DNA of 53,207 nt from Syntrophales bacterium. GTDB lineage: Bacteria > Desulfobacterota > Desulfobaccia > Desulfobaccales > 0-14-0-80-60-11. The translations under genes and the position numbers were made by a program. The stretch lies in contig JAQTXE010000001.1 in assembly GCA_028688935.1 (NCBI GenBank), forward strand, positions 1 through 53,207. The letters run 5' to 3'. Shown piece after piece: positions 1 to 25,597 of this stretch (the stretch's first letter is position 1; the number at the start of each line of letters is the position of its first letter). The notes beneath the pieces are model-generated. The model searched no databases and was not told the origin of the DNA. It saw only the letters and a list, made by a program, of their open reading frames with translations.

Positions 1-2
1 AG

Positions 3-206: not shown

Positions 207-216
207 GGAGGTGTTT

Positions 217-1350: not shown

Positions 1351-1432
1351 AACGAAACCCCAAGGCTTGATGAACAGGGCGAGTGATCACGGATCCCCCG
1401 CCTTTGTTGTTTCTGGATGACATTAATCTATC

Positions 1433-1454
1433 GGCCTCCTTTGGGGGCCATTTT
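1433..1454 (+). terminator. Possible weak intrinsic terminator after the ParB-like gene
   Basis: 7-bp stem ggcctcc/ggggcc(c) (1433-1439 pairs with 1443-1449, one G-U pair), 3-nt loop, followed by ATTTT. Confidence 0.3.
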
Positions 1455-1477
1455 CAATTCATAAGGAGGAAACAAAG

Positions 1478-2608: not shown

Positions 2609-2631
2609 GGTAAAAACCAATCTTATCAACC

Positions 2632-2668
2632 GGGGGAGGTGATGAAGGTTGCCTCCCCCATTCTTTTT
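2632..2668 (+). terminator. Intrinsic terminator/attenuator after dnaN
   Basis: Perfect 8-bp G/C-rich stem gggggagg (2632-2639) / cctccccc (2652-2659), 12-nt loop, followed by ATTCTTTTT (2660-2668). The RBS AGGAGGA of the next gene follows directly. Confidence 0.6.
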
Positions 2669-2679
2669 AGGAGGAATCA

Positions 2680-3801
2680 ATGGCTATCAAAAATCTGGTG
2701 CCCCGGCTGGCAGAGCGGGGAAAAATCAAAATCGGAGAGAAGGGCGAGATCAAGACCTCCCAACAGGGAAAGCAATTCGCCCAGCCCAAGAAATTGGACC
2801 ATTTCCTGGTCACCACCATGCAACGGGATGCGGCCGGACGGATGCTCCCGGACCTGGAGTTGATGCGCAAACTGGCCCCCCAGGGCGGCAAGCTGAAGGA
2901 GTTGCCGGTGATGTTGCTCTATAACGACCCGGACATCAATTTTCAGACCCGGTATGCCTGCTATACCGGCAATCGCCTATGGTGCTGCGGGGATGGGGAA
3001 GGGGCCCAGAGGCTGGGGGAGGATGGCAAGTATCAGACCGTCCCCTGCCCCTGCCTGCGCCTGGAGTCTAACTATGCCGGCAAAGACAAATGCAAGCCCA
3101 ATGGCACCTTGCAAGTGCTCTTACAGGGGGTTGACCGTACAGGCGGGGTCTGGAAGTTCCGGACCACCTCCTGGAACAGCGTCCATTCCATCATGTCTTC
3201 CTTGAAGCTGATCCAGGCCATCACCGGTGGTGTCCTGGCGGGTATTCCCCTGAAACTGGTCCTCAGTCCCAAAACGGTCACCATCCCCGGGACCGGCCAG
3301 AACATGATCGTCTATGTCGTCAGTCTGGAGTTCCCCGGCACCGAGCAGGAACTGGCCAAGATCGGCTACGACATCGCCAAGAGGCGGGCCGATCACCGGG
3401 CCAAGATGGATCAGATCGAGGCCGAGGCCCGGAAGGCCCTGGAACATCTGGAAGAGACCCCTGAAGAAATGCGGGAGGTGCAGGAAGAGTTCTACCCAGA
3501 AGGGGTGACCATCGAGGTGAAGCCCGAAGCGGGGCAGGCGTCTGAACCGGCACCGGGAGAAGAGGGTCCCGAAGCAAGCCCTCCTGGGCCGAATGAGAAG
3601 ACAGAAGTACCAGGAGAAATTTCTTCTTCGCCCGAGTTGGAACCGGGAGAGGAGCCGGTGCCGCTATCCTGGGATTCTCCTCCTGTGCCACCCCAGCCCT
3701 CTGCGAATCCAAAAACCAACAAGGGCAAAAAAGGTTCGTCCACTCCCCCGCCATCGCCGCCAGGCGAAATGGTGGAAGAAGGCAAAACTACCCTCTTTTA
3801 A
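2680..3801 (+). CDS. Replication-module protein: Cys-cluster N-terminal domain plus ~110-aa acidic/Pro-rich disordered tail ending in TTLF (possibly phiC31 gp3-like family; function unknown)
   Basis: 373 aa with a strong RBS. N-terminus LVPRLAERGKIKIGEKGE...KLDHFLVTT. Cys cluster: CCGDGEG...VPCPCLRLE...KCKPNG. The tail from about aa 265 is E/P/S/G-rich. The family call is from memory only. Confidence 0.35.
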   Translation: MAIKNLVPRLAERGKIKIGEKGEIKTSQQGKQFAQPKKLDHFLVTTMQRDAAGRMLPDLELMRKLAPQGGKLKELPVMLLYNDPDINFQTRYACYTGNRLWCCGDGEGAQRLGEDGKYQTVPCPCLRLESNYAGKDKCKPNGTLQVLLQGVDRTGGVWKFRTTSWNSVHSIMSSLKLIQAITGGVLAGIPLKLVLSPKTVTIPGTGQNMIVYVVSLEFPGTEQELAKIGYDIAKRRADHRAKMDQIEAEARKALEHLEETPEEMREVQEEFYPEGVTIEVKPEAGQASEPAPGEEGPEASPPGPNEKTEVPGEISSSPELEPGEEPVPLSWDSPPVPPQPSANPKTNKGKKGSSTPPPSPPGEMVEEGKTTLF

Positions 3802-3970
3802 TCCTGAAATGATGATGCTAAAAGCGAGCCCCGGGGCGATTGGGGGTTTCCTCATAAACCCCTTTTCACCCTGGGGCAGAGCCTCAGTCAAAATTTGCGA
3901 GAATTTAAACCACCATCCCTCAGGTTTCTAATAGGCCCCAGGGATGAATCCTAATGAAGGAGCATGAATC

Positions 3971-5110
3971 ATGCCGGCCAAAAAAATAACCCAATATTCT
4001 TTCTCTCGCCTCGACCTTTACGAGAAGTGCCCTTGGGCGTATAAAAAAGTCATCCTGGAAGGAGTCCCCCGGGTTTCCAACGAGGCCATGGTCACCGGGA
4101 AGACGGTTCATGCCCTGATCGCCGATTACTTGCTACGGCTCATCAACCAGAAGCAGCAAACCGACTGGGAATGGGCGGAAGGGGCAGCCCCCAAAGATGC
4201 CTCGTCTGATGTCCTACAAATCTGGGAAAGATTTTATAACTCCTTTGTCCTGCCCCCCGCCCTGGAGGTCTATGGGGTGGAGCACAAGCTTGCCTTCGAT
4301 CGCGCCTGGTACCCCTGCGAATTCTCTTCCGCAGACGCTTACTTTCGGATGATAGTAGATTTTCATTTCCGCCAGGGAGAATTGGCGGTAGTGCTTGACT
4401 GGAAGAGCAACCGGGTGGTCCCCGAGATGGTAGAGAAGAACCTGCAACTGCGCACATACGGGTGGGGATTGAAACAAGTGGCCTATCCCGACGCCGAGGA
4501 GATTCTCTTGCGTTTGCACTTCCTCCGCTATGGCAAAGAGCGGGAAGTGCTCCTGGAACCCCAAGACCTCGAAGGCGTCCCGGAAATCCTAACAGACAAA
4601 ATCCGAGCCATTGAGCAAGATCAAGAATACACCCCCACCCCCGGCTCCTTTTGTGGTCTTTGTGGAGTCACTGCCCACTGTCCCGCCATGGCTCAAGCAT
4701 TGATGCCGGTGGAGGTTCTGGCTCCAGCAACCCTGGAGCAGGCGGAAAAGGCCGCTTCCCTTCTTCTAACCTTGCAGAAAATGGAGAAGGAACTGACTTC
4801 TCGGCTCAAGAATTGGGTCCGGGAAAACGGTCACATCAAGGTTGGCGATCTGGTCTACGGCCCAAGCCGAACGATCTCTTACGACTTTGACCCTCAACTT
4901 GTCGCCACTACTCTGTTAGAGGCTGGCCTCAACAGGGAAGAGGTTTGGTCGCTACTCTCAATCACCAAAACCAATTTGGAGAAAGGGCTGCGGAAGTTTA
5001 AGCGAAGGGACCTTCTTGAGATGGTACTATCTACCGCTGCCAGCAAGGGTTCGGAAAAGATAGATTTTCGGAAGGCGGAAGAGGCCATGAGTTCTACTCG
5101 CTGCAAATAA
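3971..5110 (+). CDS. PD-(D/E)XK nuclease, Cas4/RecB-like, with probable 4-Cys Fe-S cluster
   Basis: 379 aa. N-terminal SFSRLDLYEKCPWAY, core IVDFHF...VVLDWKSN (D...D-x-K), Y-rich motif, and C-terminal CGLCGVTAHCP. One N-terminal Cys plus three C-terminal Cys is the Cas4/AddB pattern. Confidence 0.75.
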   Translation: MPAKKITQYSFSRLDLYEKCPWAYKKVILEGVPRVSNEAMVTGKTVHALIADYLLRLINQKQQTDWEWAEGAAPKDASSDVLQIWERFYNSFVLPPALEVYGVEHKLAFDRAWYPCEFSSADAYFRMIVDFHFRQGELAVVLDWKSNRVVPEMVEKNLQLRTYGWGLKQVAYPDAEEILLRLHFLRYGKEREVLLEPQDLEGVPEILTDKIRAIEQDQEYTPTPGSFCGLCGVTAHCPAMAQALMPVEVLAPATLEQAEKAASLLLTLQKMEKELTSRLKNWVRENGHIKVGDLVYGPSRTISYDFDPQLVATTLLEAGLNREEVWSLLSITKTNLEKGLRKFKRRDLLEMVLSTAASKGSEKIDFRKAEEAMSSTRCK

Positions 5111-8100
5111 CGTGAAGAGGCACATTCGCTACTTCACGCAGATAGACTTCAGTCGAACCAAGTAAATCGAGCTGCTGTTCGCTAACCGCTTCTTTAGAGA
5201 TCCCCGGTTGAGCGATGATCATCCTAAAGTCGGGCTTCAGCATTCGCGCTCTCTCCGCAAGGCGATAAAGAGTGTTCCCGTTGCCGACGATAAACCCGCT
5301 TCTTCCATATAATCTGATACGGTTCTTCTCGCGATCAATCAGCTTATGAAATAAGATCTCGCTATTCCTGCGCCATCGGACGGATTTCTGAGTTTGACCG
5401 CACACCTCATAAAGATCGGCCACTCGACCACCAGGAACTTGTTCAGATGAGTATTTACAGTGAATTAACTTAACCACTAAACGATCTTCGTCGATACGCG
5501 CAGCAACAATGTCGGCGATCTCGCCAGGCCCGTCATCATCGATCATAATCTCCCAATCTGCAATTCCCTTCAAGTATTCGACGGCGCGCGCTTGGACCGT
5601 GTTTTCATCACGGTTCTGGCCCCATGACTCTTTTCGTAAATCTACACCAGACCAATCAAAGACTATGAGCTTGTCGAGATCGAAAGGCGGAAGAGCACGA
5701 TTTGGCTTTAGCAGCATTCCTGGCGGAACCACCGTCGCGTCTTGCTCGAACAGAATGCACAAACCATGCTGGGCGAGGTATTCGCTGAATGGTACGCGGG
5801 ATCGGCGAGTAACAACCTCAATATCTGCGACCTTTGCCCGATACTTCATTCCACCATCTGCGAACAGAATTTCATATCCAGCCTTCCATCTGGGTGTCGT
5901 CACGTCAAATCGGATCGGACCACTGTTCGAGAATTCAGTGATCTTAAGGTCAGCATCTATGAATGTCCAGCTATCGCCTCTGTGCTCAACCTGTGTTTCT
6001 TCGGAGATATTAAGGAATACTTCCCATGGCCATTCTAAACCCAGAGCGACATACGGGGGACGCGTCTCAACCACCTCTGGGCGAATGAAACCGCGCATTA
6101 CCTCGTCTACATTGATTCCTGGATCGTTCACCTTACTTCCAATATGATCACACCAGTCTTTCCAGTGTTTAATTGTCGGTGCGACACGATAGCTCCAGAT
6201 TCGACCTTTGAGTGAGGCTCCGATGCTCATCCGAACCCCATTCTCATAACCGTAAGCGAAGATGTTAGTTTTCGTCTTGGTCTGGGCCTCTGCAATCGGG
6301 AAACCTTCGATTACATCAGCACCAACGTGCATAGAGAAACGGCGACTCCGATTTCGGATGTCCAGCACGCCGACATTCGTAGGTACGAGGCGTTTGACGT
6401 TAGCCATTACCCGATAGACAGCCTCGCCAGAGAAACGCTCTACATCATCCCCGCACACCGCTTTTGCTAACCCCTCATGAAGAAGGTCGGTATTCGAACT
6501 GTTGACATAGAGGAGATGTCTGACCTCATCCCAGTAAAGGACATACAGATCATACCCAACCTCAACTAAGGTTTCGAGTTCACCCCACCGCACCGGTGAA
6601 CGTGACTCGGTGACAAACCAGGCGACATGGTCCTGTTGGTTAATTGCGATCGGATCTGTGAGGAGCGTCTCCTCTTTGTAAATCTCATAAATCCCATGAG
6701 GTCGCCAAGTCTCGCAGTGCGTGCGATACACAACGGTGCTCATCTTTGGCTCTATGTTCCTCAATGAGACTTCTTCGGGAAGTGCTCCAAAGGCTGCCTC
6801 GAATTCGCTTACTTCGTATTCCTCACCTACGGCTGCCTCGGAGAGATCTCTAATGATAAGGTTCCAATCGGGCTCTTCCGCATAAAGTTTGTGAAGGCTT
6901 TCGTCATACCGGCCTTCTGGCCGTCCGGTCACCACGCTCGCCTCCCCGATTTCTGCGCCAGCCACTCTAGCGAACCTCCCGACGAATTGAAGCGTTACGC
7001 CCAAGCTTTTATGCAGATCGTGAATCGCAGCAACCTTGAGTGATGGCAGGTCAAAGCCCTCACCGAGCATGTCTACACAGACAATTATCCTACTTTTTCG
7101 AGTTCGGAGGCTATCGAGAGCTGACTGGCGGATGTTCACTGGTAACGAGCTGTGCAATACGACTGGCTCTAGATCTGGTGCCAGTTCCATATAAAGCTTT
7201 TGTATCTCATTGGCGCGCCCTATTCGTTTGACGCGTGCCATCAAGAGATGGTCAAGGCCTGCCTTAAGGTCCCCCCGTAATCGCTCAATGGCGCGGGTGG
7301 CAATGGCTTTATCAGGATTTTCGAAGTCGACGACAGAGATATAGTTGATTTGCGAGAAGTAGCCATGCCTCTGAGCCTGCCGCAACGGAAATGAATAAAC
7401 GATTCGCCCGGCGATCCGACGCCCGTCTTCTCGAAATGGAGTCGCAGTAAACTGGAGGACGGGCTTGTCTTCGAATTCGTCTCGAATTCTACGCCAAGTC
7501 GCGGCTTCCACATGATGTGCTTCATCAACAAACAGATGAGAACAAGTACCGAGTAATGCCTGCATGACATTCGGCGAGGACGCAAACAATGCCTGAGGTG
7601 TTGTAACGATTACATTACAGCGCTCGGCAAATTCACTTCCCGCATTGGAACTAGAGAATGCATGCCGCAACTGGCCTACAACTGGACGAATGGCTTTTGC
7701 ACTAATAACATCGGATTCTTGCAGCACCCCAAATGATACAAATTTTGCCGCAAGCTGCGTGCGGAGCACTTCGGATGGAACCACTACGAGCAACCGCTGT
7801 GGGCGCGCGGTGACCAGCAGCGCGATCATCGTCTCGGTCTTGCCAGTCCCTGTTGGCATCACTACGCTAGCTGGCTGTGTTGATCCTGTGGTCCAGTAGC
7901 CAAGCACCCCATGTACGGCACCTAGTTGTGGTAATCGAAGCCCAGGACGATCATTTTCTTCTAAAACAAAGCTGAAGGAGTAGGCCCATGACTGCCTGGC
8001 TTCGGCCGGCGTAGTTGGTGACAAATCTCCTACCCAGCTAATGCGGTTGGGTTTCATAAAGGCTGCTTTCAAATTCTTCAGTCCTTCACGCCCCACCCGC

Positions 8101-8348
8101 AAGGCCCGTTTTCCAGGAGATAGGCTTGTCGCACCAGCTAAGAGTTGGATGACCGAACCATCCATCGAGACTAGGTGGGGTGGGAGGACTGATATTTCGA
8201 CCCGAGCATGCCCCGGTGCCAAGAGCATCTGCCTTGCACGATTGCGGTCAACCTTGATTTCACTTGAGAAGCATGGGGGTACCGCAACTTCAATCACGTC
8301 TTCACTAAATAGAGATTTTTGTGCTTTGCCTAACCTCTCACTCATCAC
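5094..8348 (-). CDS. SF2 (ResIII/DEAH-type) helicase fused to a large beta-rich middle region and a C-terminal restriction-endonuclease-like domain; single-gene defence candidate (Hna-like architecture)
   Basis: 1084 aa. Motif I VVMPTGTGKTET, motif II LFVDEAHHV, motif III LQFTATPFR, helicase-C VDMLGEGFDLP...QFVGRFAR. The C-terminal GEIADIVAARIDEDRLVVKLIHCKYS resembles a D...(D/E)xK nuclease core. Only minus-strand gene in the window. Confidence 0.7.
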   Translation of the reverse strand: MMSERLGKAQKSLFSEDVIEVAVPPCFSSEIKVDRNRARQMLLAPGHARVEISVLPPHLVSMDGSVIQLLAGATSLSPGKRALRVGREGLKNLKAAFMKPNRISWVGDLSPTTPAEARQSWAYSFSFVLEENDRPGLRLPQLGAVHGVLGYWTTGSTQPASVVMPTGTGKTETMIALLVTARPQRLLVVVPSEVLRTQLAAKFVSFGVLQESDVISAKAIRPVVGQLRHAFSSSNAGSEFAERCNVIVTTPQALFASSPNVMQALLGTCSHLFVDEAHHVEAATWRRIRDEFEDKPVLQFTATPFREDGRRIAGRIVYSFPLRQAQRHGYFSQINYISVVDFENPDKAIATRAIERLRGDLKAGLDHLLMARVKRIGRANEIQKLYMELAPDLEPVVLHSSLPVNIRQSALDSLRTRKSRIIVCVDMLGEGFDLPSLKVAAIHDLHKSLGVTLQFVGRFARVAGAEIGEASVVTGRPEGRYDESLHKLYAEEPDWNLIIRDLSEAAVGEEYEVSEFEAAFGALPEEVSLRNIEPKMSTVVYRTHCETWRPHGIYEIYKEETLLTDPIAINQQDHVAWFVTESRSPVRWGELETLVEVGYDLYVLYWDEVRHLLYVNSSNTDLLHEGLAKAVCGDDVERFSGEAVYRVMANVKRLVPTNVGVLDIRNRSRRFSMHVGADVIEGFPIAEAQTKTKTNIFAYGYENGVRMSIGASLKGRIWSYRVAPTIKHWKDWCDHIGSKVNDPGINVDEVMRGFIRPEVVETRPPYVALGLEWPWEVFLNISEETQVEHRGDSWTFIDADLKITEFSNSGPIRFDVTTPRWKAGYEILFADGGMKYRAKVADIEVVTRRSRVPFSEYLAQHGLCILFEQDATVVPPGMLLKPNRALPPFDLDKLIVFDWSGVDLRKESWGQNRDENTVQARAVEYLKGIADWEIMIDDDGPGEIADIVAARIDEDRLVVKLIHCKYSSEQVPGGRVADLYEVCGQTQKSVRWRRNSEILFHKLIDREKNRIRLYGRSGFIVGNGNTLYRLAERARMLKPDFRMIIAQPGISKEAVSEQQLDLLGSTEVYLREVANVPLHVICSE

Positions 8349-8661
8349 ATCTCCCTTCTATGTTCAATTGACCTCTTCAGACATTGTAGGTTCTATCTTT
8401 TTGTGCAATTTTCATATGATAGGCATGATAGCACAATTCCCGCCGTGAAAGTAATTTTCCCAAAAAATTGATATTGGACTTCCATAAAGCTTGCCTAAGC
8501 CCTGTTTAATCCGGATCATGTCTGGAATCTTCCGATATTTGGTGATAAGTTATGATTCTGACAGGTGGTTTGGACCGATAGCCTTCTCTATCTTAATCTT
8601 GATGGCCTTTGAGAAAAGAGACCAAGACCCATATGAGTCTCAATTAATAAGGAGGTCCGCT

Positions 8662-9660
8662 ATGGGAGCAATAAAAATCATGAGTCTAAATGGGCAAGAT
8701 ATGATTGATTTGATTCCCAAGAATCTCCAAATCCCGACGAGCGAGAGCATTAACTTTTGGAGAGCAAAACTTCTTGCTGCCATGATATTCGAAGTCGACC
8801 CTGATGTTGTCGGTCTTGTAGAAGCTCCTCCTGATGAAGACCGAACTCGAGCATTCGTAGATGGTTTTCTTGATGGAATATTCAATGTGCATCAAGCAGA
8901 AAAAAGAGGGGCATTAGGATTAGCCTTCTTAGTCCGAAAGACTGCAAATATTAGAGTTAACGTGCGGAGCAAGGATCAGAGTCTTAAGGATTTCAAGTTG
9001 GATGAGTTCGATTCCGACGGCGACGGGATTAGAGAGAAGTACACTTGGTGGAATCGTGTGCCTTTGGAAGCTGATTTTTCGGATGGCGGCCTCAAGGCAA
9101 AGACAACCTTCATCATAATTCACTCCAAGTCGAAGGGAGCGTTCATTCCAGGGGACCTATTTGCTTACGAACGGCTCTCGAAGGCAAACAGGATGAAGCT
9201 TCGTGCACAAGCGAATTCTGTCCGTAAAAGATTAAATCAACTGGTAGATGAAAATGGGAAGGGAAGAGTCGTTGTTATGGGGGATATGAATGACGGACCT
9301 GAGTTTGATATCCACGCAGCGCTTTTGGGTGGGTGTTTTTTAGAGCCTTTGATGGGAAGCATTTGGGACCCTGTGCGCATCTTCCACAACACGCATACAT
9401 CTTTTCCTACTAAAGACCGTTGGACCATTGATTTCCTTGATCGAGTGGTAAATCCACTTGGCTCTTCAAAATACGGCCAACCTTCAGAACTCAGGTCTTG
9501 GATTGACCATATCCTGGTGTCCCCCGAGCTAAAAAGCTCAGTGGTTCCGAATACCGCAGGAATCCTTCATAAGCAACCGAGTATTCTAGGGCTTCCCGGG
9601 AAGTTTAAAGGGGTAAGGGGCACAGACCATCATCCACCTTTTGTGGCTCTTGACCTGTGA
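8662..9660 (+). CDS. Endonuclease/exonuclease/phosphatase (EEP) family protein
   Basis: ATG 8662 is preceded by AAGGAGG (8649-8655); the track's 8491 start adds an unsupported extension. EEP motifs in order: IMSLNG, VGLVEAP, IIIHSKSKG, VVMGDMNDGPE, SWIDHILVS, GTDHHPPFVAL. Confidence 0.8.
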   Translation: MGAIKIMSLNGQDMIDLIPKNLQIPTSESINFWRAKLLAAMIFEVDPDVVGLVEAPPDEDRTRAFVDGFLDGIFNVHQAEKRGALGLAFLVRKTANIRVNVRSKDQSLKDFKLDEFDSDGDGIREKYTWWNRVPLEADFSDGGLKAKTTFIIIHSKSKGAFIPGDLFAYERLSKANRMKLRAQANSVRKRLNQLVDENGKGRVVVMGDMNDGPEFDIHAALLGGCFLEPLMGSIWDPVRIFHNTHTSFPTKDRWTIDFLDRVVNPLGSSKYGQPSELRSWIDHILVSPELKSSVVPNTAGILHKQPSILGLPGKFKGVRGTDHHPPFVALDL

Positions 9661-11531
9661 AAAAAGAACTTTTTGATTTGCAACGCTTTTATAAGGAGAT
9701 AAAGCAGATGCTGCTTTTGCAGGAACGGAAAGAACTAATTCGAATTCAAGATCAGCTTTCATCTCTTTCAAAAAGCCCTACTAAGATAACTGTTGAAGAT
9801 AACCGCAAATACTTTGACACACTGCGTGATGCATTTCGTCTTTTTGAAGATATCGTTTCCCGAGTAAATAAATCGGGGAGTGACCTTGATGGTGATGACA
9901 AGGAAAGCCTGTTTGGGACCATCGGCAATGCCATTATGGGGCTAGGTGGTGTTGCAGAGCCCTGCCCATATTCACTTAAGGATTATGACCATCTTGTTTT
10001 CGGGCCCTTCCTGGGTGTGAGTGATGAGGGAGGCGCAGTTCACGACATTCGGCGTGCAGCCATTAACTCTCCTAAGGTCCGTGCGCTCGGCACGGTCTCC
10101 CCAATTCAGGTCGGAGTTGCCCATGATGCGGAAAGGCTTGCGGCAGTTGGAGAGGTAGCTGTTGGGCCGGAGGAATATAGGGATATCATCCTGGGAAGTC
10201 AGGGCAGTATTCTTACCTCTACGAATGTTGGAACTAGGTTGAATCTACGCTACTACAAGATGCGGCCGATCCTTGGAATACCCGGAGGTTCTTTCGATGA
10301 TGCGATTAAAAATGCCACAAAAAAGCTCGGTGAACTTTTTTTGCCATTTTTGCAAACTCCGGACGGTAGGCCTAGACCTGTAACGGTGCTTGCTCGTTTT
10401 CCTATCAGGACACGATTCGCAAGGAGACTCCAAATCCTCAAGGCGCTAAATGCATCCATTGCCGGCAGTAGGTTCTGTGACCAGAGATGCCATAATTTGG
10501 GGCTTCTGGTTGATGTTTCAAGTGGGCAGAGGGGGTTGAATTTTGTAAAAGCCTCCATCGATCTGGCAAAGGAAGCAGGGATCACGGAGGTCGCAATACA
10601 AGGGCAAATCAGGTGGGAAGCTGAAAACAAGATCTCCATGCCTGGACTTCTAAATTACTTCCGGCCCGAACATGTCTCCGAGCTGATAGAATATGCCCAG
10701 AAAATAGGTGTGAGCTTGACCGCCAAAAATCTGGTAGATCCGGATACTGTGGCCCGAAATGTTTGGAGTAGCCTCCAGGCTGCGCGCAACATGGGCCTGC
10801 ACTTAGGCAAATACGGCTTGTTCCCGCTCACTTTCGAAGAATGTGATAAAGTTATGGGGCTTGTGCAGCGCTGGTTCTCTCATTGGTCGGCAGCTCCAGT
10901 CTTTTATCTGGATTTTCCACATATGAGCGAGAGCCATGTCTCCGCTGAAAAAGAAATTGATAAGGGTGCAAAAAGGTGGCTAGATATCGTTGCCAGGCAC
11001 GATATTCTAGTGGTTCTCCTCGACACCGCTGACAAAGATAAGGGGCGGAAATTGATCAAGAAAAGCCATGGAGACCGGGTCGGCATCTTAACCCTGGAGC
11101 AGCTTTCTGATATTGATCATTATGCGAATGAGCGGGGGATACGATGTCTGTGGGCCGGCGGCATAACGCTTCTGCAAGCCTTCGAACTTGGGAAGCTCAA
11201 GGTTTTTGGCATCTATGTGACCACTTCCACCGCAGAAATTCGACCCATCTCGGAACAATATGCCTCTGACCTCATGCTGACTGCCGAGAGAAAGCCGACT
11301 TTCCAGGGCGTTTATCGGGCCAAGGTTCTGCTGGAAGCTGGATTTCTGGTTACCCGCCTTAAGGAATTGAACCTACCTGCTGAGGCCGGGGCCCTCGATG
11401 AAGAGGCAACCAGACTGATCAGGATCATCGACAAAGCGGCCTCCGATGAACAAATAAACCCCATTGTGGAGCAAGTGGCTGGCCTTGCTCAAACTGCTTG
11501 GGCAAAGCATTTCAAAAGCCAGGTTGCCTAG
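9657..11531 (+). CDS. Uncharacterised 624-aa protein; C-terminal half TIM-barrel-like, with MfnB/DUF556-like motifs (tentative)
   Basis: GTG start overlaps the EEP stop (GTGA). Alternating beta/alpha pattern LGLLVDVSS / ITEVAIQG / VSLTAKNLVDPDTV...LHLGKYGL / PVFYLDF / ILVVLLDTADKDKG / IRCLWAGGI / VFGIYVTTS. The resemblance to DUF556 is from memory only. The N-terminal ~280 aa match nothing I recognise. Confidence 0.3.
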   Translation: MKKELFDLQRFYKEIKQMLLLQERKELIRIQDQLSSLSKSPTKITVEDNRKYFDTLRDAFRLFEDIVSRVNKSGSDLDGDDKESLFGTIGNAIMGLGGVAEPCPYSLKDYDHLVFGPFLGVSDEGGAVHDIRRAAINSPKVRALGTVSPIQVGVAHDAERLAAVGEVAVGPEEYRDIILGSQGSILTSTNVGTRLNLRYYKMRPILGIPGGSFDDAIKNATKKLGELFLPFLQTPDGRPRPVTVLARFPIRTRFARRLQILKALNASIAGSRFCDQRCHNLGLLVDVSSGQRGLNFVKASIDLAKEAGITEVAIQGQIRWEAENKISMPGLLNYFRPEHVSELIEYAQKIGVSLTAKNLVDPDTVARNVWSSLQAARNMGLHLGKYGLFPLTFEECDKVMGLVQRWFSHWSAAPVFYLDFPHMSESHVSAEKEIDKGAKRWLDIVARHDILVVLLDTADKDKGRKLIKKSHGDRVGILTLEQLSDIDHYANERGIRCLWAGGITLLQAFELGKLKVFGIYVTTSTAEIRPISEQYASDLMLTAERKPTFQGVYRAKVLLEAGFLVTRLKELNLPAEAGALDEEATRLIRIIDKAASDEQINPIVEQVAGLAQTAWAKHFKSQVA

Positions 11532-11574
11532 TTTTTCTTGATCGGGCCGGCCTCGACCCACCGAGGAGCAATGC

Positions 11575-12405
11575 ATGACAAGAAAAGGGAAGAATCACCT
11601 AAAGGGTGCGCGGGTCTATCTCTCCGGCCCGATGGATTTTGTCGCCTCAAGGGCCAAGGAGAAGAAATTTGGCTGGCGCAACCGCATCGGTCAGTTCCTA
11701 AAGTCATATGGAGTTACCGTTTTTGATCCCTGGAATAAGCCGGCAATCAGAGGGCTTCTTGAATACGGCAAAGAAGATGAAAAGAGCGCGGAAGCCAGGA
11801 AAAAATGGACTTTCGACCCCGGAGAGAAGGGCATCCAGGCGAGAGGCGAATGTGCCTCGAATTTTTGGGAAACACTCCACATAGATCTAAGGATGGTGGA
11901 CATCAGCGATTTTGTCATCGCCTATTGCCCAACCAATATCTACAGCGTCGGCACGGTTCACGAAATCGTGGTAGCCAGGCAAGAGAGAAAACCTGTGCTT
12001 TTTGTCAGCCCCCCAGTCTCTTTTCCCACCTTGAAGGAGCTTGAAAAGGAGTTAGAGGGGCATCGCCAGGCCTTGAATCTGTTGAAAAAGCTCAAAGACG
12101 AACTTCCTGTAAAAGAGAACGAGCGTGGCATCCCCAGTTTATGGTATATGCCTCTGGTAAGCACTGAGGGCTTTTTCGATGGCTTCGGCTTCAATGACAA
12201 GAAGCACGCCAATAAGTTCAAATGGCAGATGGGATCGGAGCTTGACGAAAGGGAACTGAAATGCCCTCCCAGACGTCCATTGCTCCCATATTTAGAATCC
12301 ATCGCCTCTGGCGATTTCCCCAAAAAATGGGATCATCGGTCTAACAAGTTGATACTGAACGATGACTGGCTACTTATGGAGCAGGCATTGCAAATTGGGC
12401 CTTAA
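11575..12405 (+). CDS. Nucleoside 2-deoxyribosyltransferase-like superfamily protein (NDT/Rcl/DUF4406 clan) with ~120-aa C-terminal extension
   Basis: 276 aa. GARVYLSGPMDF...GWRNRIGQFLKSYGVTVFDPW, then DISDFVIAYCPTNIYSVGTVHEIVVARQERKPVLFV. This gives the glycine-rich first strand and the GT-x-x-E catalytic-Glu region typical of the clan. Confidence 0.55.
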   Translation: MTRKGKNHLKGARVYLSGPMDFVASRAKEKKFGWRNRIGQFLKSYGVTVFDPWNKPAIRGLLEYGKEDEKSAEARKKWTFDPGEKGIQARGECASNFWETLHIDLRMVDISDFVIAYCPTNIYSVGTVHEIVVARQERKPVLFVSPPVSFPTLKELEKELEGHRQALNLLKKLKDELPVKENERGIPSLWYMPLVSTEGFFDGFGFNDKKHANKFKWQMGSELDERELKCPPRRPLLPYLESIASGDFPKKWDHRSNKLILNDDWLLMEQALQIGP

Positions 12406-12539
12406 AAGCATTTTTTCCATAAGAGAGTTAACCTTCTTTATATTTGTATTATATTTAGATAAGGATTTTAATTATCAGTGGTTGATTGTACTGCATTTAT
12501 TTAGATATTTCTATGCATATCAGCAAGAGAGGAATTAGC

Positions 12540-13829
12540 ATGTACATCTTTGAAGTTAAAATTAGCAATATTATGAGTTTCGATGACATCACTTTATCAA
12601 TTGAAAATAGTAAAAGTCCTTGTTTCTGGAATGTTATCCTTGGAGATAATTCCACGGGCAAAAGCTCAGTCCTTAGGTGCATAGCCATAGGACTTTCTGA
12701 TCAAAATACTGCCGCCACGTTAATAAAATCTTGGGGTGCCGACCTCCTGAGAGATAATAATAAGCCTGGGAAGATTATTGTCACGCTTGGTAAAGAAGGT
12801 TCTGGTCCTTTATTTACAATAACAACAAGAATTATTCCAAAGTATTCTATGGAACTGGTGCAACCTAAAATAATACGTCCCAAGGAGTATGAAGCTTATT
12901 TTTGGAATGAGCTTTTCATCTGTGGTTATGGGATTCAAAGATCAGGTGGTGGCTCTGAAATTTCTCATAAATATTCACCTTTAGAAGCAGTTATGACTTT
13001 GTTTGATTATTACTATCCCATTCAAAATATAGAATTAATATTACATAGAATATCGAGGGAGAGACCAGACCGGGAAAATAAAATATTAACATTAATAAAA
13101 GAAGTACTCATGCTGGACGAAGATCAATCCATTATATTAACTCCAAAAGGCCTAAAGTTCATATTCGATGGTAGAGAAGTATTCCTTGATTATATAGGTG
13201 ATGGCTATTCTGGCACGGCAACCTGGCTTATCGATTTTTTGGGGTGGCAACTTTATGCTGATCGTATGAGTAAAGACCAACAACTATCGGATCTAGTAGG
13301 GATAATACTCTTAGATGAGCTCGAGTTAGCATTACATCCTAAGTTACAAAGAAATATTGTAAGGAATCTTAAGGAGCATTTTCCGAAAGTCCAGTTTATT
13401 GTGACAACTCATTCTCCCATAATCGCTGCTGGTGCGGCTGATTTTCAAGATGCACGACTTTTTCCTTTTAGACTTGACAAGGATAAGACAATATTAATCG
13501 AAGATATCCCTTCTTTAAGAGGCCGAAGTGTGGATCAAGTGCTTTCATCCATGGTATTCGGTATGTACATAACTCTAAGCCCTGGGAGCGTTAGTGACAT
13601 TGATCGATTCTCAGAACTGATGAGTAAGTCCCGAGACCAGAATGAAGAGACTGAATTTCAAAAATTAAGAAAAATTCTTGAAGACGCTATGCCAATTGGT
13701 ACTACTGAGGCTGAGAGGCTTGTAGAGAAAGCAATCCTTGATGCTTTGGAAAAACTGCTGAATGAGAAGCCTAGTAAAGACTTAGAGTTGATTATGAAGG
13801 ATAAACTAAATAAATTGGATAAATATTAG
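12540..13829 (+). CDS. ptuA: Septu-type AAA/ABC-like ATPase (PtuA-like)
   Basis: ATG 12540 with an AGAGAGGA RBS. Walker A ILGDNSTGKSSVL, Walker B/D-loop IILLDELELALHP, and IVTTHSPII. It is followed 10 nt later by an HNH gene, which is the Septu gene pair. Confidence 0.7.
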   Translation: MYIFEVKISNIMSFDDITLSIENSKSPCFWNVILGDNSTGKSSVLRCIAIGLSDQNTAATLIKSWGADLLRDNNKPGKIIVTLGKEGSGPLFTITTRIIPKYSMELVQPKIIRPKEYEAYFWNELFICGYGIQRSGGGSEISHKYSPLEAVMTLFDYYYPIQNIELILHRISRERPDRENKILTLIKEVLMLDEDQSIILTPKGLKFIFDGREVFLDYIGDGYSGTATWLIDFLGWQLYADRMSKDQQLSDLVGIILLDELELALHPKLQRNIVRNLKEHFPKVQFIVTTHSPIIAAGAADFQDARLFPFRLDKDKTILIEDIPSLRGRSVDQVLSSMVFGMYITLSPGSVSDIDRFSELMSKSRDQNEETEFQKLRKILEDAMPIGTTEAERLVEKAILDALEKLLNEKPSKDLELIMKDKLNKLDKY

Positions 13830-13839
13830 AAGGCCAGCG

Positions 13840-14685
13840 ATGGTTAAGATTGAGTTTAAAGAGCCAGATACGCCTGTGTGGAAAAGGTGGCGAAGGGATT
13901 GCGCTACTGCTACAACTAAAGTTGTTTCAGCTGTACGTGAGGGTGAAAAGCCTGACATTAGAAATATTTATAAAAGAGCGAATATCAAGCAATCATTTTA
14001 TATGTCGATTGATGGGCCTTTTCATGGTAAGTGCGCTTATTGCGAGACACTTATTGTTGCGGATCAGTATGGGGATATTGAGCATTTCAGACCAGCACGA
14101 GCAGTTACAGATGAACTTGGCAAGCCGATAACATTCACTAAGGGGCATGGTGAAGTTCTAGAACATCCTGGCTACTACTGGCTTGCATACGATATCAGCA
14201 ACCTGCTCCCTTCATGCGAATTGTGTAATAGGCCAAACCCTAAGGGAATTGAAGAGAATGTAGTTGGGAAGCATAATAAATTTCCTCTTAAACAAGGTTC
14301 ACATGCCACATCTCCTGGAAATGAAGCTAATGAGGAACCTCTGTTAATCAATCCAATCCATGAGAATCCAGAGAATCATCTGAAGGTGGATTTCAAAACG
14401 TTTATGTTTGGAGGGGATGATCGAGGTCAGTGTTGCATACGAATATTCGGTTTAAATATTCGACCTGGCTTAGCGGCAAACCGTCGGACTGCCTACCAAG
14501 CCACCCTATCATGTTTGAACAAGTACATAAACAGTGTAGACGAGAAAGAAACGAAAGAATGTTTAGACGAACTTTGTGACATCGTAGCGGGCAAGAAGCC
14601 CTATTCTTTTATTGGTAGGGCTATTATTAAGAGCAAATTTCCATCTTTTTTTGGAGATTTGGAAGGAATGGTCTCTTCTATATAA
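13840..14685 (+). CDS. ptuB: Septu-type HNH endonuclease (PtuB-like)
   Basis: 281 aa. HGKCAYCETLI...GDIEHFRPARAV...YYWLAYDISNLLPSCELCNR gives the CxxC...H...CxxC-N HNH core in the arrangement seen in PtuB / TIGR02646-type proteins. Confidence 0.7.
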   Translation: MVKIEFKEPDTPVWKRWRRDCATATTKVVSAVREGEKPDIRNIYKRANIKQSFYMSIDGPFHGKCAYCETLIVADQYGDIEHFRPARAVTDELGKPITFTKGHGEVLEHPGYYWLAYDISNLLPSCELCNRPNPKGIEENVVGKHNKFPLKQGSHATSPGNEANEEPLLINPIHENPENHLKVDFKTFMFGGDDRGQCCIRIFGLNIRPGLAANRRTAYQATLSCLNKYINSVDEKETKECLDELCDIVAGKKPYSFIGRAIIKSKFPSFFGDLEGMVSSI

Positions 14686-14703
14686 TTTAGTGTGTGAATT
14701 AAA

Positions 14704-15870
14704 ATGTCATTTTTAATTGATACTTATATAAGCAATGTTAAAAGTCCTGCATTCGTATATAATGAAAATGAGATTTTATCAAAAATAAATATAATAAAAA
14801 ATATAAGTAAATTAGCGTCATGCAAAATTTATTTCCCTTTGAAAGCGTTTTCCTTTCCCGATGCATTAAAATTCATGGGAGAATACATTGATGGTTTTTC
14901 AGCAAGTTCGTTGTTTGAGGCAAGATTAGCGTTTGAAATGATAAATGCTAAAGAGAAGTCGATTCATATTACATCTCCTTTTATAGTTGATGAGGAACTA
15001 TCTTCTGTCATTACATATTGTAATTCTATTTCATTTAACTCTTTGGGGCAATGGCAGAGACTTCGTGGAATGGCTAAAGATAAGATTAGTTGCGGTCTCA
15101 GGATAAATCCAGGAAGTTTGTTTGTTAAAGACGTTAGGTATGATCCGTGCAGAAGACATTCCAAGTTAGGTATTCCGATAAAAATACTATCATCAAATTT
15201 CAATAAACATTCTGATTGGATGGAAGGTGTTAGTGGATTACATTTTCATACTAACTGTGAGTCAACAAATTTTGGAGAATTATTGGCAACTGTTAATTTA
15301 ATATGCAAGCACCTTCCACAGGTTCTTGACAGAATTGACTGGATTAACATTGGAGGAGGTTATCTTTTTGAGTCTGAACAAGATTTTGAGCATTTTATAG
15401 AGGCTGTCCTATTCTTAAAAAAGAAATTCGATATCCAAGTTATTTTTGAACCTGGGAAAGGAATAATTGGACAAGCTGGCTCAATTGTTTCAACAGTTGT
15501 AGACATTTTTTTAAATGACGGGCATAACATAGCAATCCTTGACACAACCACAAACCACATGCCTGAGGTTTTTGAATATCAATTCAAGCCTGATGTTGCT
15601 CAGGAGTCCGATGAAGGAAAGTACTCTTATATATTGGCCGGATCTACCTGCCTGGCTGGGGATATATTCGGCGAGTACCGTTTTGACAAGCCACTGAAAA
15701 TAGGTTCACGGATAGTCTTTGAAAACATGGGCGCATACACGCTGGTCAAAGCCAATATGTTTAATGGCATCAATCTTCCGACGATTTATGCATACACCCA
15801 GGATGGGAAGCTCGAAATGAAAAGGCAATTTACCTACGACGATTTCCTGTCGCGATGCGGGGGCAGATAG
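14704..15870 (+). CDS. nspC: Carboxynorspermidine/carboxyspermidine decarboxylase-like PLP enzyme (NspC family)
   Basis: 388 aa. SPAFVYNE, YFPLKAFSF, SASSLFEARLA, GLRINPG, HSKLGI, GLHFHTNCES, INIGGGY, FEPGKGI, AGSTCLAGDIFGEY, FENMGAYT, FNGINLPTIY. This is the full motif series of the fold-type III CANSDC family. Confidence 0.8.
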   Translation: MSFLIDTYISNVKSPAFVYNENEILSKINIIKNISKLASCKIYFPLKAFSFPDALKFMGEYIDGFSASSLFEARLAFEMINAKEKSIHITSPFIVDEELSSVITYCNSISFNSLGQWQRLRGMAKDKISCGLRINPGSLFVKDVRYDPCRRHSKLGIPIKILSSNFNKHSDWMEGVSGLHFHTNCESTNFGELLATVNLICKHLPQVLDRIDWINIGGGYLFESEQDFEHFIEAVLFLKKKFDIQVIFEPGKGIIGQAGSIVSTVVDIFLNDGHNIAILDTTTNHMPEVFEYQFKPDVAQESDEGKYSYILAGSTCLAGDIFGEYRFDKPLKIGSRIVFENMGAYTLVKANMFNGINLPTIYAYTQDGKLEMKRQFTYDDFLSRCGGR

Positions 15871-15872
15871 CG

Positions 15873-17291
15873 ATGATTCTTTATGAAAAGGAAATTACGG
15901 TTCCGTTAGTCGGACACCATGAAAGGTTATTGGACCACCTATCGGAAGTAATTCTGGAGAGACTGCCCAGATCCGAGATACCCGTTCGAGTCGCGGTTAC
16001 GCTAACCGACGAGAAAGGCTACCATTGTGAGCTGGGCATCCTTTCTGGCGCTGACCATTTTTTCGATGAAATGAGAGGCGCTATTTTTCAGTTCCAGAGG
16101 AGGGGTTTCGAGAATACCGGGCAATTCAATGCAGTATTGATCGTTCCTACGGGGGTCGGGGCCGAAATAGGAGGACATTCAGGGGATGCGGGGTCTGTTG
16201 CCAGGCTTCTGGCTTCTGCTTGTGACAACCTGATCACCCATCCCAATGTGGTCAATGCGTCAGATATCAATGAGCTTCCTGAAAATGGGCTTTATGTTGA
16301 AGGAAGCGTGCTGGCCCGATTTCTAATGGGAACGGTCAGCCTCCAGAAGGTTAGAGCAAATAGAGTCCTTTTGGTCATAGACAAACATGCAGATAAGTTC
16401 TTCTATGAATCTGCCGTGAACTCGGCCTCGGCCGCCAGGTCCTCACTGGGCTTGGATTGTCCGGGGGTGGTAATGCTCGAAGATAAAATGCTGATGCGGT
16501 CGTTATATTCCAGTTCTGGAAGGGCGGTTGGCAAGATCGACTATTTCGAGCGCGTATATGATGTGTTGACGAAGTACCGTCCCCAGTATGACGCCGTTGC
16601 CCTGTCTTCCGTGATCAAAGTACCGGAGAATTTCCACACTGACTATTATCTCAAAGACATGATCAATCCCTGGGGAGGCGTGGAGGCCATGCTGACCCAC
16701 GCCATCTCTTTGATGTTTAATATTCCCTCGGCTCATTCTCCCATGTTGGAGACACGGCAAATACTGGACCTTGAGTTGGGAGTGATCGACCCCAGAAAGG
16801 CTGCGGAGATTGTCTCTGTGACCTTCCTGCATTCCATCCTTAAAGGTTTGCAAAAGAGTCCGAAGATATTGAATGGCATGGCGCCTCTCGGTTGTCCCGG
16901 GGTATTAACGGCAGCCGATGTCTCTTGTGTAATCATCCCGGACGGTTGCATGGGTCTGCCCATTCTTGCAGCCCTGGAACAAGGGATACCGGTCATCGCC
17001 GTGAGAGAAAACAAAAATAGAATGCGGAACAATCTCGAAGAGTTTCCTTTCGACACAGGGCGGCTTTTCTTGGTAGATAATTATCTTGAAGCGGTCGGGG
17101 TGATGAGCGCCCTCAAGGCAGGAGTCTCTGTGGAGTCGGTAAGACGACCGCTAAAATACACAAATGTCTATGAAGAAACGGCCTCCTGCGCCGCGAGAGA
17201 AACCAGCAAGAAGCCATTGAAGTTTGCGAAAGGAATTGATGATGTTGAAGAGGATTTACTCCGAAAGGAAGGAAGTAAGGCGGTCAGGTGA
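15873..17291 (+). CDS. DUF3326-like protein
   Basis: ATG 15873 lies 2 nt after the nspC stop. The motifs LIVPTGVGAEIGGHSGDAG and INPWGGVEA match my recollection of the DUF3326 signature. No known function. Confidence 0.5.
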   Translation: MILYEKEITVPLVGHHERLLDHLSEVILERLPRSEIPVRVAVTLTDEKGYHCELGILSGADHFFDEMRGAIFQFQRRGFENTGQFNAVLIVPTGVGAEIGGHSGDAGSVARLLASACDNLITHPNVVNASDINELPENGLYVEGSVLARFLMGTVSLQKVRANRVLLVIDKHADKFFYESAVNSASAARSSLGLDCPGVVMLEDKMLMRSLYSSSGRAVGKIDYFERVYDVLTKYRPQYDAVALSSVIKVPENFHTDYYLKDMINPWGGVEAMLTHAISLMFNIPSAHSPMLETRQILDLELGVIDPRKAAEIVSVTFLHSILKGLQKSPKILNGMAPLGCPGVLTAADVSCVIIPDGCMGLPILAALEQGIPVIAVRENKNRMRNNLEEFPFDTGRLFLVDNYLEAVGVMSALKAGVSVESVRRPLKYTNVYEETASCAARETSKKPLKFAKGIDDVEEDLLRKEGSKAVR

Positions 17292-25529: not shown

Positions 25530-25597
25530 GAAAAGCTGGCCCTGAGGAAATGGCTCAAATGGGTCAGCCGTCCGGATAGAACCAGAGGGAAGCCGAT

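Follow-up and report, generated by a model that had tools for sequence, protein, structure and literature searches.

Introduction

Retron effectors that resemble nucleoside 2-deoxyribosyltransferase (NDT) and effectors with ATP-nucleosidase activity act in phage defence. Septu, which pairs an ABC/SMC-type ATPase (PtuA) with an HNH nuclease (PtuB), is known to be joined by upstream controlling accessory modules: the system gains accessory genes (PMC8565338), the DNA nicking of the stand-alone PtuAB pair drops as ATP rises, and retrons co-opt the pair as their effector (PMC12819146). Here we describe a locus from a Syntrophales bacterium in which a Septu pair lies directly downstream of three genes, on the same strand, at positions 8662-12405 of a 53,207-nt stretch of DNA (GenBank assembly GCA_028688935.1, contig JAQTXE010000001.1, positions 1 to 53,207, forward strand; hereafter the window, in whose numbering all coordinates are given). 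These genes encode an EEP-fold metal-dependent phosphoesterase (gene 1), a protein with an MfnB-like barrel (gene 2) and an NDT-superfamily protein (gene 3), and an initial annotation, made from the sequence alone, had proposed that they form one operon and a candidate nucleotide-directed defence system. Our comparison with relatives suggests, with middling confidence, that the pair of genes 2 and 3 defines an uncharacterised, horizontally mobile conflict module, most likely directed against phages, with an interchangeable nuclease slot.

The locus resembles Septu, including versions of it that have been co-opted (Septu type II / type I-A retrons such as Ec78/Eco7), in that PtuAB lies downstream of gene 3 and recurs beside genes 2 and 3 in many phyla. 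Unlike in those retrons, no reverse transcriptase with a non-coding RNA accompanies the pair, and the accessory genes here encode an EEP phosphoesterase, a protein with an MfnB-like barrel and an NDT-like enzyme; no reverse transcriptase domain was found among the genes at 5094-18649, and no Rfam family or tRNA anywhere in the window. Most loci with genes 2 and 3 also differ from Septu in having PLD-type or other nucleases in place of PtuAB. Gene 3 shares with the NDT superfamily (nucleoside 2-deoxyribosyltransferase, Rcl/DNPH1, MilB/BlsM and the Retron-Eco1 type II-A effector) its family's Pfam matches, its motifs and the residues E130 and D104, whereas the window protein itself falls below the Pfam cut-off, bears a C-terminal extension of ~130 aa, has no PDB relative by sequence and is accompanied by no retron. 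The gene 2 barrel has its best structural match in MfnB, the 4-HFC-P synthase (MJ1099, UPF0264/DUF556), with which the 'LDTAxKDxG' and 'AGGI' segments align; in contrast to MfnB, gene 2 has 607 aa with three extra regions, lacks conserved equivalents of Lys27 and Asp25, falls below the Pfam cut-off and stands in a genomic context unrelated to methanofuran synthesis.

As an analogy of working only, drawn from general knowledge, the locus may also be compared with nucleotide-depleting effectors (the ATP nucleosidases of CBASS and Detocs, dCTP deaminase, dGTPase, and SIR2 and TIR NADases). These cleave nucleotides, which starves the phage or sets off abortive infection, and SIR2 domains occur in some gene 2 arrays, but their folds and families differ from those of genes 2 and 3. 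The gene set is unnamed, as the initial annotation had supposed, and goes undetected by current tools: we found no published description of it, and in PADLOC-DB v2.0.0 (2023), at E<=0.1, genes 1 and 3 had no match and gene 2 only a chance-level match to Cas11b (0.015).

Results

Genes 2 and 3 travel together while the nuclease partner changes

An alignment-based scan of 185,579 species genomes, one genome per species, recovered 52 gene 2 loci, a pattern-based lower bound, whereas a scan with a single gene 2 sequence returned nothing. Seven contigs found by exact-protein look-up brought the scored set to 59 loci, whose neighbours were counted with tblastn, every member of a neighbour family serving as query. 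The 52 genome loci lie nearly all in metagenome-assembled genomes. Gene 2 loci are patchily spread over more than 15 phyla, including Acidobacteriota, Verrucomicrobiota, Desulfobacterota, Aminicenantes, WOR-3, Planctomycetota, Actinomycetota, Chloroflexota, Gemmatimonadota, Bacteroidota and Pseudomonadota, and one locus is archaeal (Bathyarchaeota).

An NDT-like partner accompanies gene 2 in 51 of the 59 loci (gene 3 in 43, and in 8 the ~400-aa protein c7, which we only infer to be NDT-like), and the two genes often abut or overlap. With one exception, a locus that holds two systems, c7 occurs only where gene 3 is absent. A 299-aa protein, c2, is present in 27 loci. The remaining partners are far more varied: PLD in 17 loci, PtuA in 14, PtuB in 13, EEP in 13, a trypsin-like + S1/P1-like protein (c8) in 6, DUF6119, His_Phos_1 and the terpene-cyclase-like c9 in 5 each, trypsin + Endonuclease_NS in 4, a helicase of the window's type in 3, and a Cas4-like PD-(D/E)XK + RNase-H/DUF2779 protein in 2-3. 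Neighbours beyond these include SIR2, in 2 loci, and S1/P1-like proteins. By hand count, ~45 of the 59 loci carry at least one nuclease-type partner, and many of the others are short contigs.

Gene fusions join the same kinds of partner. One gene 2 homologue is fused to Cas4-like and DUF2779 domains (P0111), another to a GMC oxidoreductase and an unknown ~210-aa domain (P0273), and three more to that same ~210-aa domain alone (P0281, P0289, P0295). Moreover, defence-type genes lie near gene 2 loci, among them Gabija-like OLD/UvrD, NACHT, TIR, NERD, Mrr, HsdM and, in five loci, DUF6119.

The trio was therefore not upheld as a conserved unit, since the EEP stands with gene 2 in only 13 of the 59 loci and is elsewhere replaced by PLD, PtuAB or other nucleases; of the co-occurrence expected in other genomes, the part concerning genes 2 and 3 held, as these two are syntenic, and the part concerning the EEP did not. 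On the partner counts and fusions, the conserved unit appears to be gene 2 with an NDT-like protein, often together with c2, and the EEP to be one filler of an interchangeable nuclease slot.

To view the association from the side of gene 3, we scanned metagenomes with a gene 3 profile and obtained at least 586 confirmed stretches. Among the matches listed, 23 loci had at least 2.5 kb on both sides, and of these, gene 2 was present in 6, PtuAB in 7, PLD in 5 and c2 in 5. Arrays lacking gene 2 took the forms gene 3-PtuA-PtuB-(AdoMet_dc-sized gene or nspC-like)-DUF3326 and c2-PLD-PtuA-PtuB-gene 3. Because gene 3 occurs alone, with PtuAB without gene 2, and with gene 2, it appears from these arrangements to be the hub: gene 2 nearly always needs gene 3 or c7, and Septu-type pairs are the most frequent partner of gene 3.

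A Septu pair and polyamine-type genes extend the array

The initial annotation had confined the unit to three genes and ended its transcription at 12405. Neither claim was upheld. In the window's closest relatives the array runs on into PtuAB and polyamine-type genes, in the common order (EEP)-gene 2-gene 3-PtuA-PtuB-decarboxylase-DUF3326-(radical SAM), and the window shows this longer order across 8662-18649. The adjacent ABC/AAA_15-type ATPase and HNH nuclease at 12540-14685 constitute a Septu pair; genes 1-3 do not. Because no terminator-like site was found after gene 3, in scans that stayed at background level, and PtuA and PtuB come next on the same strand, an end of the unit at 12405 is not established.

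PtuA lies beside gene 2 in 14 of the 59 loci and beside gene 3 in 7 of the 23 well-flanked gene 3 loci. Two close relatives lack the EEP: L055, with a gene 2 66% identical to that of the window, has gene 2-gene 3-PtuA-PtuB-decarboxylase-DUF3326-radical SAM, and L059, from Desulfobulbaceae (57%), has gene 2-gene 3-PtuA-PtuB-AdoMet_dc-DUF3326 beside NACHT and Gabija-like genes, AdoMet_dc here replacing the decarboxylase that depends on pyridoxal phosphate (PLP). The EEP is present in L057 (65%), which has EEP-gene 2-gene 3-PtuA-PtuB(HNH)-decarboxylase-DUF3326 and, beyond it, a ResIII helicase of 1094 aa. More distantly, a verrucomicrobial locus (L026; gene 2 43% identical) has a distant EEP (27% identical)-gene 3-gene 2-PtuA-PtuB-decarboxylase-DUF3326, and L004 has gene 2-EEP-gene 3-PtuA-PtuB. 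A tight eight-gene array, L148, reads 640 aa-c9-His_Phos_1-EEP-c7-gene 2-(SIR2 + PtuA-like ATPase fusion)-300 aa; the fusion gene lies 12 nt after gene 2. PtuA is thus probably, to judge from these neighbourhoods, a functional partner of the gene 2-gene 3 module.

In the pavettamine pathway, a DUF3326 protein together with a decarboxylase domain makes a polyamine (bioRxiv 10.64898/2026.06.12.731819). A block of this type follows PtuAB in seven loci of several phyla (L026, L055, L057, L059, L072, L074, L106), sometimes without gene 2; among the 52 genome loci, only L026 has polyamine genes. We found no published description of an association between Septu and polyamine-forming genes. Their co-conservation with gene 3 and PtuAB suggests a further small-molecule branch, which might supply a co-substrate, take part in DNA modification or be separate cargo, and the block may or may not be part of the system.

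These biosynthetic-type genes bear on another explanation, a DNA modification and restriction system of the Dpd kind, in which gene 3 would swap a base in DNA or build a modified deoxynucleotide, with a compound supplied by gene 2, c2 and the polyamine-type genes, and the helicase, EEP, PLD and PtuAB would restrict unmodified DNA. It fits with the base exchange through a covalent glycosyl-enzyme intermediate that is generally known as NDT chemistry, with the co-conservation of a radical SAM gene and the polyamine-forming pair, and with a helicase upstream of gene 1 that has weak DpdF and PbeA matches and recurs near genes 2 and 3. Nmad3 genes lie near one locus, and the window is phage DNA, phages being known to hypermodify theirs. 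The Dpd 7-deazaguanine system likewise combines biosynthesis genes, including radical SAM, with an enzyme that exchanges a glycosyl bond and with helicase and PLD-type restriction genes; the window, in contrast, lacks preQ0 genes, DpdB/C and a DpdA of the TGT family, and its helicase scores 23.8 bits for DpdF against a cut-off of 550. We also know of no NDT-fold enzyme that acts on polymeric DNA, and Pfam detected no DNA-binding domain in gene 2 or gene 3. The supposed restriction partner varies much more widely than it does in known modification systems, gene 3 occurs alone, and most gene 2-gene 3 loci have no polyamine genes. We regard this explanation as improbable.

Predicted activities of the three products

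The call of gene 3 as an NDT-clan protein with a C-terminal extension was sustained by its homologues. The window protein matches Nuc_deoxyrib_tr (PF05014) at 24.4 bits (E 3.5e-5; cut-off 28.8), and among 31 homologues, 26 match the same family (best 7e-8) and 19 match Nuc_deoxyri_tr2 (PF15891). An hhalign alignment (E 0.005) with a provisional copy of the Lactobacillus NDT sequence places E130 opposite the NDT nucleophile E98 and D104 opposite D72; both residues are invariant in the 31 sequences. The protein carries the beta1 'YLSGPM' and 'S-x-G-x-x-x-E' motifs, and the stretches quoted in the initial annotation, VYLSGPM, SVGTVHEI and KPVLFV, are present in the translation. The extension is conserved across the family, which comprises at least 2367 clusters, and conservation runs over the whole length (54% mean column identity; 58-82% identity to the window protein in the homologues sampled, and about 59-82% over the full length among the relatives listed). 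A sequence search of the PDB, even with a profile, returned no relative. The AlphaFold2 (AF2) model is poor (pLDDT 66.6, with the core below 50), so the fold search with it is uninformative; its best Foldseek match was 7m5h (E 2.7e-3), and the rest were generic flavodoxin-like proteins. From these alignments we assign gene 3 to the NDT superfamily, with a putative catalytic Glu.

For gene 2, the AF2 model is confident (pLDDT 90.6): N-terminal helices lead into an alpha/beta domain (aa ~95-278), a (beta/alpha)8 barrel spans ~279-545, and a helical bundle forms the C-terminal part. The resemblance of the barrel to MfnB/DUF556, proposed in the initial annotation, was supported: Foldseek ranks 1-6 in the PDB are all MJ1099/MfnB chains (4rc1/4u9p; E 5e-7 to 6e-6, TM(target) 0.54-0.58), followed by other phosphate-binding barrels (IMPDH, PRAI, PdxJ, TIM), and the sequence matches Pfam 4HFCP_synth (PF04476) at E 3e-3 and 17.8 bits, below the cut-off of 22.4. 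Four of 35 homologues match PF04476 at E<=0.01. Sequence searches of the PDB, single and profile, gave no usable match, and a fold search of BFVD returned generic barrels only.

The three gene 2 stretches on which that proposal had drawn, VSLTAKNLVDPDTV..LHLGKYGL, VVLLDTADKDKG and IRCLWAGGI..VFGIYV, are present in the translation. In hhalign, VVLLDTADKDKG pairs with VAMLDTAIKDG of MfnB and CLWAGGI with CALAGSI, and the invariant K385, D456 and K460 stand opposite MfnB K85, D151 and K155. We take the Schiff-base Lys27 of MfnB, with Asp25 on strand 2, to be its catalytic residues; opposite Asp25 and Lys27, gene 2 has A313 and Q315, in a permissive hhalign alignment of low confidence in this segment, and its strand 2 ends in an invariant G316 with no invariant Lys. 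The suggested class-I-aldolase chemistry is doubtful because equivalents of Lys27 and Asp25 are not conserved, and we rejected gene 2 as an MfnB orthologue or class-I aldolase on the same ground. As modelled, the barrel is MfnB-like and gene 2 appears to represent a new family. This family comprises at least 419 clusters and has 60 invariant columns in 35 sequences, with an AGG/G-x-Y-V-T phosphate-loop region among the invariant features and many invariant polar residues in both domains. The N-terminal domain appears private to the family, because an exhaustive search of 1.84 billion representatives found it in only 115 proteins, which by length and matched position are apparently all gene 2-like or fragments; some of them carry extra fused domains.

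Gene 1 was correctly called as an EEP protein with a full catalytic set. It matches Pfam Exo_endo_phos at 38.5 bits (E 1.4e-9), above the cut-off of 24.5, and in an alignment with 13 homologues N10, H154, D208, N210, D282, H283, D322 and H323 are invariant and E54 nearly so. In a profile search of the PDB its best relative is E. coli ExoIII (1ako), and the alignment matches the Glu, GDMN and DH segments of the two. Homologues found alongside gene 2 show 56-78% identity. Gene 1 thus encodes an intact EEP phosphoesterase, whose substrate may be DNA, RNA or a small phosphodiester.

Observations that weigh against a conflict module

Several observations, given here with the explanations that they favour, weigh against a conflict module. 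Gene 3 is unusually conserved for a defence gene. Among the matches listed, 12 of the 23 well-flanked gene 3 loci have no gene 2, PtuAB, PLD, c2 or other conserved neighbour; gene 3 relatives that stand alone are 59-65% identical, and two long contigs place a gene 3 about 60% identical to that of the window in ordinary metabolic surroundings. One of these adjoins a cytidine deaminase, an M20 peptidase and a cytosine/purine permease, which resembles salvage or catabolism. Furthermore, the GMC oxidoreductases, histidine phosphatase and terpene-cyclase-like c9 found as partners resemble small-molecule metabolism.

Most of this would suit our main rival explanation, a catabolic or salvage pathway in which a nuclease (EEP, PLD, EndoNS or S1/P1) yields mononucleotides, gene 3 removes the base (compare Rcl/DNPH1, MilB and BlsM), gene 2, aided by phosphatases and oxidoreductases, processes the (deoxy)ribose phosphate, and Septu and other defence genes just happen to share the mobile islands. 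The pathway could also claim the His_Phos_1 partners, the fusion of one GMC oxidoreductase to gene 2, the sugar-phosphate enzyme that is the barrel's closest fold, and some neighbours that are secreted-type proteins. The gene 2-gene 3 pair is, however, rare in the genomes scanned and patchy across phyla, no transporter or regulator recurs among the neighbours of gene 2, and PtuAB stands immediately adjacent on the same strand at gene 2 and gene 3 loci far above chance expectation. Neither do the fusion of gene 2 to a Cas4-like nuclease, the operonic SIR2-PtuA gene, the protease-nuclease fusions, the TIR, NACHT, Gabija-like and restriction-modification (R-M) neighbours, or the place of the module within a phage accessory island sit easily with a salvage pathway. 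We consider it unlikely, if worth serious attention.

The link to Septu has its own difficulties. PtuA proteins found beside genes 2 and 3 share no more than 24-34% identity with the window PtuA, so the link could be repeated co-location in islands rather than co-evolution, and the GC content of genes 2-3 (0.49) departs from that of PtuAB (0.37-0.41), a difference found in three of four loci. Were the EEP, genes 2-3 and Septu simply three independent island cargoes, one would also expect, as observed, a difference in GC between genes 1-3 and PtuAB, a 134-nt AT-rich gap with promoter-like hexamers ahead of PtuA, and relatives such as L055 and L059 without the EEP; defence islands do accumulate unrelated systems. 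Yet the order EEP-gene 2-gene 3-PtuA-PtuB recurs in L057, with variants in L004 and L026 in different phyla, the EEP homologues that accompany gene 2 show 56-78% identity, and L148 holds EEP, c7, gene 2 and SIR2-PtuA in one tight array. Because the order repeats across phyla, chance juxtaposition alone is very improbable.

Phage collections offered no trace of the module: neither gene 2 nor gene 3 was found in 50,697 GenBank phage genomes, gene 2 had no relatives in IMG/VR by pattern scan, and gene 3 was not found in IMG/VR. Phage carriage is therefore exceptional. A plasmid collection gave a single gene 2 match, on a 1.18-Mb Microvirga replicon without recognised partners or annotation, and no gene 3.

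Finally, Pfam found no ligand-sensor domain (SAVED, CARF, SLOG, Macro) in the EEP or PLD partner. This bears on both the conflict module and a signalling or small-molecule system, in which genes 3, 2 and c2, with the polyamine genes in the window's clade, would make a nucleotide-derived messenger or toxin, such as a ribosyl or ADP-ribosyl conjugate, that activates nucleases or poisons phage replication. A conserved core with interchangeable effectors is, as is generally known, the architecture of CBASS, Thoeris and type III CRISPR, and TIR- and NDT-type folds carry out base exchange; the link to polyamine-forming genes and the many invariant polar residues in both gene 2 domains, which suggest catalysis, would also agree with signalling. 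Against it stand the missing sensor domains, the lack of a cyclase or TIR, and the occurrence of gene 3 in contexts without an effector: by Pfam, genes 1-3, PLD and EEP have none of the features of CBASS, Thoeris or Pycsar (cyclase, TIR synthase, ligand-sensor effector), though remote homologues are possible. Such a system seems to us distinctly unlikely.

Locus layout and genomic setting

The three co-directional open reading frames of the initial annotation, 8662-9660, 9657-11531 (624 aa from a GTG) and 11575-12405, were confirmed on the + strand, and the two AT-rich flanking gaps have the lengths and coordinates first given (Table 1). Strong Shine-Dalgarno sequences precede the ATG of gene 1 (AAGGAGG) and that of gene 3 (GAGGAG). 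The GTGA overlap between genes 1 and 2 was only partly upheld: the letters are present at 9657-9660, whereas gene 2 most likely begins at ATG 9708, because an AAGGAG lies at 9693-9698, a suitable distance upstream, alignments with homologues begin only at residue ~18, and the product is 607 aa long in independent gene calls on an identical contig. A 47-nt gap would thus follow gene 1, and the GTG overlap would be incidental. A promoter and terminator scan of the locus gave counts at shuffled expectation, with no promoter-like match standing out in 8349-8661. The spacer between gene 3 and PtuA (127-271 nt among relatives) showed no sequence conservation that would mark an RNA or regulatory element.

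Table 1. Features of the window at and around the locus.
Feature	Coordinates	Strand	Description and evidence
ResIII/DEAD helicase	5094-8348	-	1084 aa; Pfam ResIII 5e-21; weak PADLOC PbeA/DpdF matches
Divergent intergenic region	8349-8661	.	313 nt, GC 0.39; presumed promoter region between helicase gene (-) and gene 1
Gene 1	8662-9660	+	EEP-fold metal-dependent phosphoesterase, 332 aa; variable nuclease-slot component
Gene 2	9708-11531	+	MfnB-like barrel protein, 607 aa from ATG 9708 (624 aa from GTG 9657)
Gene 3	11575-12405	+	NDT-superfamily protein, 276 aa; predicted nucleotide N-glycosidase/transferase
Gap between gene 3 and PtuA	12406-12539	.	134 nt, GC 0.27, AT-rich
PtuA	12540-13829	+	Septu ABC/SMC-type ATPase, 429 aa; PADLOC 5e-57
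PtuB	13840-14685	+	Septu HNH nuclease, 281 aa; PADLOC 1e-43
Carboxynorspermidine-decarboxylase-like PLP enzyme	14704-15870	+	NCBIfam nspC 4e-101, below cut-off
DUF3326 protein	15855-17291	+	Pfam DUF3326 7e-91
Radical SAM protein	17288-18649	+	Pfam Radical_SAM
Second defence-type set	18845-28309		DUF499 ATPase-like (1027 aa), DUF3780, DUF1156 methyltransferase (1009 aa), PLD+SNF2 helicase fusion (903 aa)

The locus had been placed between two defence-type loci in a phage-borne island, and this proved sound, with the helicase upstream, Septu downstream and a portal gene at 28456. The backbone resembles a phage or prophage. On the left (1-5110) it encodes ParB, a DnaN clamp, a Gp3-like recombination directionality factor and a DUF2800 PD-(D/E)XK nuclease; on the right, from 28456 to 50000, it encodes a portal-MuF fusion and further large open reading frames, the best phage relatives of the portal being 29-33% identical. 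GC lies at 0.57-0.60 in the backbone and at 0.36-0.55 in most island genes, DUF3780 (0.65) being an exception. The lower-GC cargo region holds the helicase, genes 1-3, PtuAB, the decarboxylase, DUF3326 and radical SAM genes, and the DUF499-DUF3780-DUF1156-PLD/SNF2 set, which looks like an R-M, BREX or DISARM-like system; phage-borne defence island is a fair description of it. In the last 3 kb (50-53 kb), GC falls to 0.45.

The helicase has a ~600-aa unassigned C-terminal region and weak matches to type IV restriction proteins as well. One homologue, 37% identical over 999 aa, lies near genes 2 and 3 in L014 and another in L057, and a helicase of this type may be a recurrent partner of the pair.

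Further partner families

The c2 protein, absent from the window, is found in 26 of the 52 genome loci (L005-L049; for example L022:6204-7103), usually immediately upstream of gene 3-gene 2, and has 56 invariant columns that include GPG..GDFD..WH..CHL and GRR..HP.QL. It had no Pfam match and, by sequence, nothing usable in the PDB, and c2, c7 and c9 had no match in PADLOC; by these searches c2 appears to be an unrecognised protein family. As a candidate divergent gene 3, c7 was not significant (hhalign E 0.23; 0.06 with a single sequence), although hhalign aligned LSTGMMDELG of c7 with YSVGTVHEI and DLRW with DLRM, likewise short of significance. No relation to gene 3 was detected for c19 or c2.

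In an Aminicenantales locus (L011:7899-17483), c2-gene 3-gene 2-c8 occupy one strand, and c9-His_Phos_1-EEP-c7 with a gene 2 fragment the other. DUF6119 proteins of ~555 aa lie within a few kb of gene 2 in L036, L054, L061, L062 and L008. Beside TIR and NERD-helicase genes, and a few kb from a c7-gene 2-c8 array, L060:1-3564 carries an adenylosuccinate-synthetase-like gene and an ADSL-like lyase, which may be nucleotide-modifying cargo.

Discussion

We return to the conflict module formed by genes 2 and 3, whose case draws on synteny, partner swapping, fusions, conserved catalytic residues, same-strand adjacency to PtuAB and a patchy distribution among defence-type neighbours. How it might work can be sketched as follows. 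Gene 3 would break or exchange the N-glycosidic bond of a nucleotide, with NAD+, ATP and (modified) deoxynucleoside monophosphate (dNMP) as candidate substrates, a chemistry predicted because it is that of the NDT family and the Glu is conserved. With its phosphate-binding barrel and private N-terminal domain, gene 2 would bind or further convert the phosphosugar side of this reaction. Upon infection, the chemistry of genes 3 and 2 would lower a nucleotide pool or make a nucleotide-derived product, and either change would license nucleic-acid cleavage by the nuclease partners, which would execute the outcome. In the window, the nuclease slot would be filled by the EEP and by the Septu pair immediately downstream. 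Given that PtuAB nicks more as ATP falls, that retrons co-opt PtuAB and that Septu gains accessories, a nucleotide-cleaving front end could gate PtuAB. We infer the substrate, the defence phenotype and which way control runs, and our confidence in any specific mechanism is low.

Because the EEP and PtuAB would both fill the slot in the window, the functional unit here is probably 8662-14685, not 8662-12405, and may take in the polyamine-type genes as far as 18649.

In a bolder version, the NDT-like protein would mark out an extensive and so far unrecognised class of immune modules, mostly in uncultured phyla, in which new nucleotide chemistry with gene 2 switches on PtuAB or other nucleases, for example through cleavage of ATP, NAD+ or a dNMP specific to the phage, or through conjugation of ribosyl-phosphate to the polyamine of the decarboxylase, DUF3326 and radical-SAM genes. 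We think this quite unlikely; if true, it would give Septu a second, non-retron upstream controller and bacterial immunity a new messenger or modification.

Even if the pathway is catabolic, the gene 3 family, with thousands of members, no solved structure and no assigned activity, would offer a new nucleotide N-glycosidase to characterise. If genes 2 and 3 do form a conflict module, they would represent a defence family of several subtypes, as yet unnamed and overlooked by current detectors, and its scarcity in collections dominated by cultured hosts would explain why screens missed it. The family would provide a first biological context for the gene 2 N-terminal domain and MfnB-like barrel and for the 299-aa c2 protein, and would point to a reproducible association of Septu-type nucleases with polyamine-forming genes. 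Septu, whose activation is poorly understood, would gain a dedicated nucleotide-processing front end.

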